DNA of 64,000 nucleotides, taken from the NCBI RefSeq assembly GCF_003334315.1, contig NZ_QOWR01000005.1; one strand, written 5' to 3'. The translations under genes were made by a program, and so were the position numbers. Below are positions 35,734 through 35,817 of this stretch, piece by piece (the stretch's first letter is position 1; every line of letters starts with the position of its first letter). The DNA comes from Escherichia coli (GTDB taxonomy: Bacteria > Pseudomonadota > Gammaproteobacteria > Enterobacterales > Enterobacteriaceae). The notes beneath the pieces are model-generated. The model searched no databases. It worked only from the letters and a program-made list of their open reading frames with translations, and was not told where the DNA came from.

Positions 35734-35817
35734 GTCGGATGCGGCGCGAACGCCTTATCCGAACTACGCGAAGTTAATCCATAGTATTCGTAGGCCGGAT
35801 AAGACGTGGCAAGCGTC
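35734..35817. repeat. BIME: two inverted REP elements
   Basis: GTCGGATGCGGCGCGAACGCCTTATCCGAACTACG and the inverted copy CGTAGGCCGGATAAGACGTGGCAAGCGTCGCATCCGGCA. Confidence 0.7.

Follow-up and report, generated by a model that had tools for sequence, protein, structure and literature searches.

What are the palindromic sequences that follow hda in this stretch of Escherichia coli DNA, and do they mark transcript ends here and at the other intergenic sites where they recur? The window (the whole stretch of 64,000 nucleotides that was analysed) belongs to an E. coli chromosome and runs in reverse orientation relative to K-12 MG1655. Its positions 31794–64000 align with NC_000913.3 2,589,787–2,622,000 at 99.2% identity, and several other E. 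coli chromosomes are 100% identical to it over the stretches tested. The original prediction placed REP/BIME repeats after hda (site 1), between bamC and purC (site 2) and between ypfH and ypfN (site 3), and this gene context agrees with the gene positions of MG1655.

We read the three sites as five copies of the REP family: two inverted Y/Z2 pairs, partial and BIME-2-like, between convergent genes, and a single Y-type unit in the 5′ leader of purC, all with a mechanism taken over from the family. We give this reading a probability of roughly 95%. The family assignment itself is already known biology, real but ordinary; no intergenic repeat of E. coli is more abundant or has been known for longer than REPs, and the window copies conform to this family, so that their discovery value is small. 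The sole mildly unusual point is a conserved REP insert that lies in the purC leader between duplicated segments. In the full text and supplements of the literature, we found no mention of these genes together with a REP.

Five REP units at three intergenic sites

A head/tail consensus (GCCKGATGCG, a core of 5–20 nt and CTTATCMGGCCTAC), scanned with up to 3 mismatches over its 24 specified positions, detects exactly five REP units in the whole window and none in 50 first-order Markov simulations of it (Table 1). The 34-mer quoted in the original prediction matches exactly at 60781–60814 and with 3 mismatches at 56074–56107, and it found no match in 100 dinucleotide-preserving shuffles. According to their cores, three of the units are of type Y and two of type Z2. 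All five lie between annotated genes, and units from different sites are 89–97% identical to one another. Each of them is an imperfect palindrome of 30–40 nt forming a hairpin whose stem contains a mismatch, and folds with the GTAG/CTAC foot unpaired (hairpin energies from −15.4 to −21.3 kcal/mol, z from −3.6 to −5.8). The GTAG foot (CTAC on the opposite strand) is present in four of the five; the remaining unit, 60732–60767, carries CCAG/CTGG instead.

These properties are those of the E. coli REP or palindromic units described by Stern, Higgins, Gilson and Bachellier, with which the window units share the length of 34–37 nt, the imperfect mismatched stem, the GTAG/CTAC foot, the extragenic position, the high copy number and the cores of both types (Y, GCGGCGTGAACGCC; Z2, GCGACGCT..CGCGTC). 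We see no essential difference from that family, the only deviations being the CCAG foot of one Z2 unit and the sequence GTCGG...CCGAAC in two Y units. The latter, which belong to sites 1 and 2 and lie on opposite strands, are 97% identical and represent a common sub-variant with GTCGG...CCGAAC in place of GCCGG...CCGGCC.

Among curated models, Rfam RF02564 (naRNA4) alone describes a REP pair; it represents one Y/Z2 unit of REP325 and has a gathering score of 59.5 bits. Scanned over the whole window, it gave matches at the three REP sites only. Those at sites 1 and 2 score 19–31 bits and cover little more than half of the model each, the three single REPs of these sites reaching 28–31 bits each (28.5 bits for the Y unit and 31.2 bits for the Z2 unit of site 1; 30.9 bits for the unit of site 2). 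Site 3 passes the gathering score with 92.6 bits on the minus strand and 60.8 bits on the plus strand. The window units also align with the genome-wide REP population, and the site-3 query finds a median of at least 39 places per genome in 5,426 E. coli genomes. Sequence identity, hairpin-forming potential, extragenic position and high genome copy number are direct observations for the window REPs, as are the strain differences given below.

The consensus scan, which found five units where none occur by chance, and RF02564 both match the three predicted sites; with the hairpin folds and the copy number they bear out the predicted identity as REP/BIME sequences typical of E. coli and devoid of coding capacity. 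The sites had been located correctly, but their boundaries shift: site 1 ends at 35826 and not at 35817, so that 9 nt had been cut off, site 2 starts at 56074 and not at 56067, and site 3 spans 60732–60814 and not 60735–60815.

Table 1. Coordinates of the REP units and of the features around them in the window
Feature	Position	Strand	Remarks
hda stop codon	35717–35719	+	converges on yfgD/arsC
Site 1, Y-type REP	35734–35767	+	variant GTCGGATG...CCGAACTAC; 3 mismatches to consensus
Site 1, tail-to-tail linker	35768–35789		22 nt, GCGAAGTTAATCCATAGTATTC; between the site-1 REPs
Site 1, Z2-type REP	35790–35826	-	0 mismatches to consensus
yfgD/arsC stop codon	35857–35859	-	converges on hda
bamC stop codon	55959–55961	+	upstream neighbour of purC
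bamC intrinsic terminator	55968–55997	+	9-pair stem (6 G-C), then TTTTTTCT
Extended -10-like element TGnTATGAT	55996–56004	+	read from sequence; abuts PurR operator; upstream of REP
purC PurR operator ACGCAAACGTGTGCGT	56005–56020	+	reverse complement of PurR motif ACGCACACGTTTGCGT (PMC3159470); REP 54 nt downstream
Upstream copy of duplicated ancestral leader segment	56024–56055	+	flanks REP insert; from alignment
Site 2, solitary Y-type REP	56074–56107	-	3 mismatches to consensus
Downstream copy of duplicated leader segment	56128–56158	+	directly before purC ribosome-binding site; from alignment
purC start codon (ATG)	56174	+	downstream neighbour of bamC
ypfH stop codon	60718–60720	+	converges on ypfN
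Site 3, Z2-type REP	60732–60767	-	degenerate foot (CCAG for GTAG); 2 mismatches, both in the tail
Site 3, head-to-head linker	60768–60780		13 nt, ATCGTTCACCATT; aligns to naRNA4 (REP325) linker
Site 3, Y-type REP	60781–60814	+	exact consensus match, 0 mismatches
ypfN stop codon	60830–60832	-	converges on ypfH

Inverted pairs between convergent genes

Sites 1 and 3 are both inverted Y/Z2 pairs, as the original prediction had it for hda and, as a pair, for ypfH–ypfN. At site 1, between the convergent genes hda and yfgD (arsC), the two units are arranged tail to tail as Y(+)/Z2(−). The Y unit begins 14 nt past the hda stop codon and forms an RNA hairpin of −16.5 kcal/mol (z −3.6). The Z2 unit stands 30 nt beyond the stop codon of yfgD/arsC, its hairpins reaching −18.8 and −19.6 kcal/mol on the two strands (z −5.8 and −4.3). 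The full pair is found in 4,709 of the 5,426 E. coli genomes, and in about 13% of genomes a deletion of 32 nt has removed most of the hda-side Y unit, leaving the first REP bases in place.

Insertion sequence IS1397 specifically targets REP loops. In E. coli SC418, a copy of it occupies the loop of the Z2 REP (window 35790–35826) and is accompanied by a 3-bp CAA duplication; this copy (400–1870 of the hda–arsC locus piece L125 of SC418) has a frameshifted transposase. PMC1525189 states in more general terms that certain insertion sequences go into REPs.

Directly after the yfgD/arsC stop codon and before the Z2 REP, positions 35827–35856 form a hairpin of 9–10 pairs which is not REP-like and has no U run; it is conserved in the other site-1 alleles examined. 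The terminator scan found no U-run terminator at site 1. A weak promoter-like match inside the site on the minus strand (9/12) was regarded as chance.

At site 3, the order is Z2(−)/Y(+), head to head. The Z2 unit begins 11 nt past the ypfH stop codon, forms a hairpin of −20.5 kcal/mol (z −4.7) and belongs to the naRNA4 match of this site; the Y unit (−21.3 kcal/mol, z −4.9) stops 15 nt short of the ypfN stop codon. Promoter and terminator scans found neither a U-run terminator nor a promoter-like site here. The site has two main alleles in E. coli. The window type occurs in about 2,916 genomes (at least 95% identity). The other, found in about 2,535 genomes (some 47%; 90–95% identity) including O157:H7, is 29 nt shorter and degenerate; its left unit is truncated and its right unit has lost the CTAC foot. 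Where the window has the Z2 unit with CCAG, this short allele retains GTAG, and 17 nt of the stem-loop are gone.

Outside E. coli, the ypfH–ypfN gap holds the same Z2/Y pair in E. albertii and REP types of their own in Citrobacter and Klebsiella; in Enterobacter, Kosakonia, Leclercia and others it holds either bidirectional terminators or simple hairpins rich in G+C. The presence of hairpins or foreign REP types in the same gap of other genera supports a role as transcript-end hairpin at this position, with which the gap contents fit. In Klebsiella oxytoca, the gap measures 443 nt and contains tandem repeats of a Klebsiella-type palindromic element, versus the single pair of E. coli.

The strain differences at sites 1 and 3 accord with published work that ranks BIMEs among the major sources of intergenic variation (PMC3333891). 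They also bear on the predicted lack of mobility: the absence of coding capacity stands, but REPs are regarded as non-autonomous elements on which TnpA_REP/RAYT acts in trans (PMC3333891), and two of the three sites vary among E. coli genomes.

For the types Y, Z1, Z2, BIME-1 and BIME-2 we follow the definitions in Ton-Hoang et al. 2012 (PMC3333891). Both window pairs combine Y and Z2 in alternating, inverted orientation, as BIME-2 does; however, BIME-2 elements usually form tandem arrays, whereas the window sites hold one pair each. Site 1 further differs by its 22-nt tail-to-tail linker, and the pair of site 3 aligns end to end with one REP325 unit. Both sites are therefore best described as partial or atypical BIMEs.

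The scores of site 3, which exceed the RF02564 threshold on both strands, could also be read differently, namely as the mark of a dedicated naRNA4-type small-RNA gene (60735–60811) working with HU to condense the chromosome; PMC4550694, which reports transcription of most REPs, is in line with this. However, since RF02564 was built from a single Y/Z2 unit of REP325, every canonical head-to-head Y/Z2 pair will pass it. REP325 is a six-unit cluster inside the yjdMN operon, whereas site 3 is a single unit between convergent genes, replaced by the degenerate shorter allele in nearly half of E. coli genomes and showing no promoter-like site in our scan. Moreover, the nucleoid function of naRNA4 is disputed: a 2026 preprint reports for REP325/naRNA4 no measurable chromosome compaction and no stable HU-DNA-RNA ternary complex (bioRxiv 10.64898/2026.03.23.713779). 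We consider a small-RNA gene at site 3 very improbable, and retain the assignment as a partial BIME.

Two of the three REP sites lie where terminators are expected, and the ypfH–ypfN gap of other genera contains unrelated hairpins, as it might if these were ordinary gene-specific terminators or chance palindromes merely resembling REPs; this explanation, to which we give next to no credence, is already refuted by the consensus and the copy number, as 34–37 nt are matched with 0–3 mismatches versus none by chance, units from different sites are 89–97% identical, tens of copies occur per genome and no U run follows them. A BIME-1/RIP-type identity with IHF binding as its main role (BIME-1 consists of z1 and y with a conserved long L linker, frequently with an IHF site; PMC3333891) has a similarly negligible probability and is disfavoured, since despite the longer than minimal linker of the tail-to-tail pair at site 1 the window contains no Z1 unit, the partners being Z2, and neither linker holds the IHF consensus WATCAANNNNTTR within 2 mismatches.

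A REP insert in the probable purC leader

The solitary REP of site 2 follows the bamC stop codon by 112 nt and precedes the purC ATG by 66 nt; its mRNA-sense strand folds into a hairpin of −15.4 kcal/mol. Three features stand between it and bamC: the intrinsic terminator of bamC, which is conserved across Enterobacteriaceae, the extended -10-like element and the PurR operator. The purC promoter was assigned a PurR motif by ChIP-chip (PMC3159470), and PurR occupancy of its promoter region has been described (PMC8282354). Since all three features are located upstream of the REP, this unit is most likely transcribed within a purC 5′ leader of about 160 nt, whose start site we infer from the sequence; the hairpin survives in the fold of the predicted leader.

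Because bamC terminates upstream, the purC-side REP cannot be a 3′ element of bamC in the main pathway. Thus, the predicted marking of transcript ends by REPs suits the two convergent pairs and does not fit the bamC–purC copy, positioned downstream of both the bamC terminator and the purC -10/PurR operator. In annotation, this copy should be treated as a part of the purC 5′ leader and not as a 3′ element.

Searched with a degenerate pattern of the first 16 purC codons, species-representative genomes yielded 120 loci; in 92 of these, a PurR box can be recognised no more than 330 nt from the purC ATG. The box starts 63–69 nt from the ATG in 75 of these 92 enterobacterial loci, 70–100 nt from it in 10 and more than 100 nt from it in 7. 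The last group comprises three Escherichia including E. albertii (168–169 nt, with a Y-type REP), Salmonella enterica subsp. arizonae, Citrobacter koseri and Intestinirhabdus alba (142–145 nt), and an Enterobacter whose insert is unrelated. The purC leaders of S. enterica subsp. arizonae and C. koseri contain a shorter REP-like hairpin; the scan found no REP in the leader of I. alba.

According to the alignment, an insert of 75–100 nt (about 100 nt in E. coli) separates the ribosome-binding site from the ancestral TTAATTCACAC. It occurs in Escherichia, S. enterica subsp. arizonae, C. koseri and Intestinirhabdus; most other Enterobacteriaceae lack it. A direct duplication of approximately 30–35 nt of the ancestral leader borders it on both sides. 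Aligned locally with the single-copy leader of Citrobacter werkmanii, the upstream copy of the duplicated segment gives a score of 42, reached by none of 1000 shuffles; the downstream copy also aligns significantly with that leader (0 of 1000 shuffles reach the score), and the score of the two copies against each other was reached by 1 of 1000 shuffles.

The purC REP is old, common to several genera and fixed in E. coli: it is present in all 5426 of 5426 genomes, whereas the other two REP sites are strain-variable. Its persistence across genera despite direct repeats that should ease precise loss could mean selection for an effect on the stability or translation of purC mRNA, and could also point to a REP insertion mechanism that duplicates tens of target bases. 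We nevertheless regard it as rather unlikely that this REP has been retained as a regulatory hairpin of the 5′-UTR and is not simply junk.

Putative roles of the REP units

We infer all functional steps proposed here from the REP family, and they should be read as expectations for the window copies. The units encode nothing and are, according to the family literature, non-autonomous hairpin repeats. In the form of single-stranded DNA hairpins that carry the GTAG foot, they would be substrates of a TnpA_REP/RAYT protein whose gene lies elsewhere in the genome and which is believed to spread REPs and reshuffle them; the K-12 gene is yafM, located elsewhere on the chromosome. Action of TnpA_REP/RAYT in trans on REPs as non-autonomous elements is described in PMC3333891, where both binding and cleavage depend on an intact GTAG foot and on the stem mismatch, in the setting of a complete or partial BIME. 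Judging from the sequence, these prerequisites are present in four of the window units and absent in one. The Z2 unit 60732–60767 may have been lost as a TnpA_REP substrate, since CCAG replaces the GTAG required for binding (PMC3333891).

A comparable arrangement is known from the REPINs of Pseudomonas, mobilised by RAYTs (PMC3116915, PMC3337134). These elements likewise consist of two inverted REPs with a short spacer, have no coding capacity and depend on a presumed trans-acting Y1 transposase; their sequence family differs from that of the window REPs.

At the two convergent sites, transcribed hairpins would act as barriers to 3′-to-5′ exonucleases for mRNAs arriving from either side, and may also serve as partial, partly Rho-dependent terminators. 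The absence of U-run terminators at both sites counts against this proposal. In bioRxiv 10.64898/2026.03.23.713779, convergent genes are the commonest REP context: about 60% of REPs are located in convergent gaps, and a REP is present in about 30% of such gaps. The same preprint describes REPs as context-dependent partial terminators and 3′ stabilisers, and reports that terminal REPs do not confer longer half-lives overall, effects varying with context. We consider the two convergent-gene pairs to be likely transcript-end and stability elements and, being strain-variable, candidate sources of differences between strains in the expression of hda, yfgD, ypfH and ypfN.

The REPs near the stop codons of hda (14 nt) and ypfH (11 nt) could in addition dampen translation by stalling terminating ribosomes, as both distances fall within the 15-nt range. 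In the summary of Liang et al. 2015 given in PMC12306157, REPs within 15 nt of a stop codon stall terminating ribosomes and lower translation. The purC copy would be a leader hairpin, and any effect of it on purC mRNA is only putative.

Other RNA signals were also recorded in the window. Rfam detects a full-length sroE small RNA at 13108–13199 (+) with 113 bits. Sub-threshold matches to IS128 RNA occur at 177–279 (−) and 227–452 (+) (72.5 bits against a gathering score of 80), covering part of the 209-nt model. A further sub-threshold match, to STnc250 at 62960–63079 (+) (37.5 bits against a gathering score of 42), falls in the region of the small gene ypfM when mapped to MG1655 coordinates.
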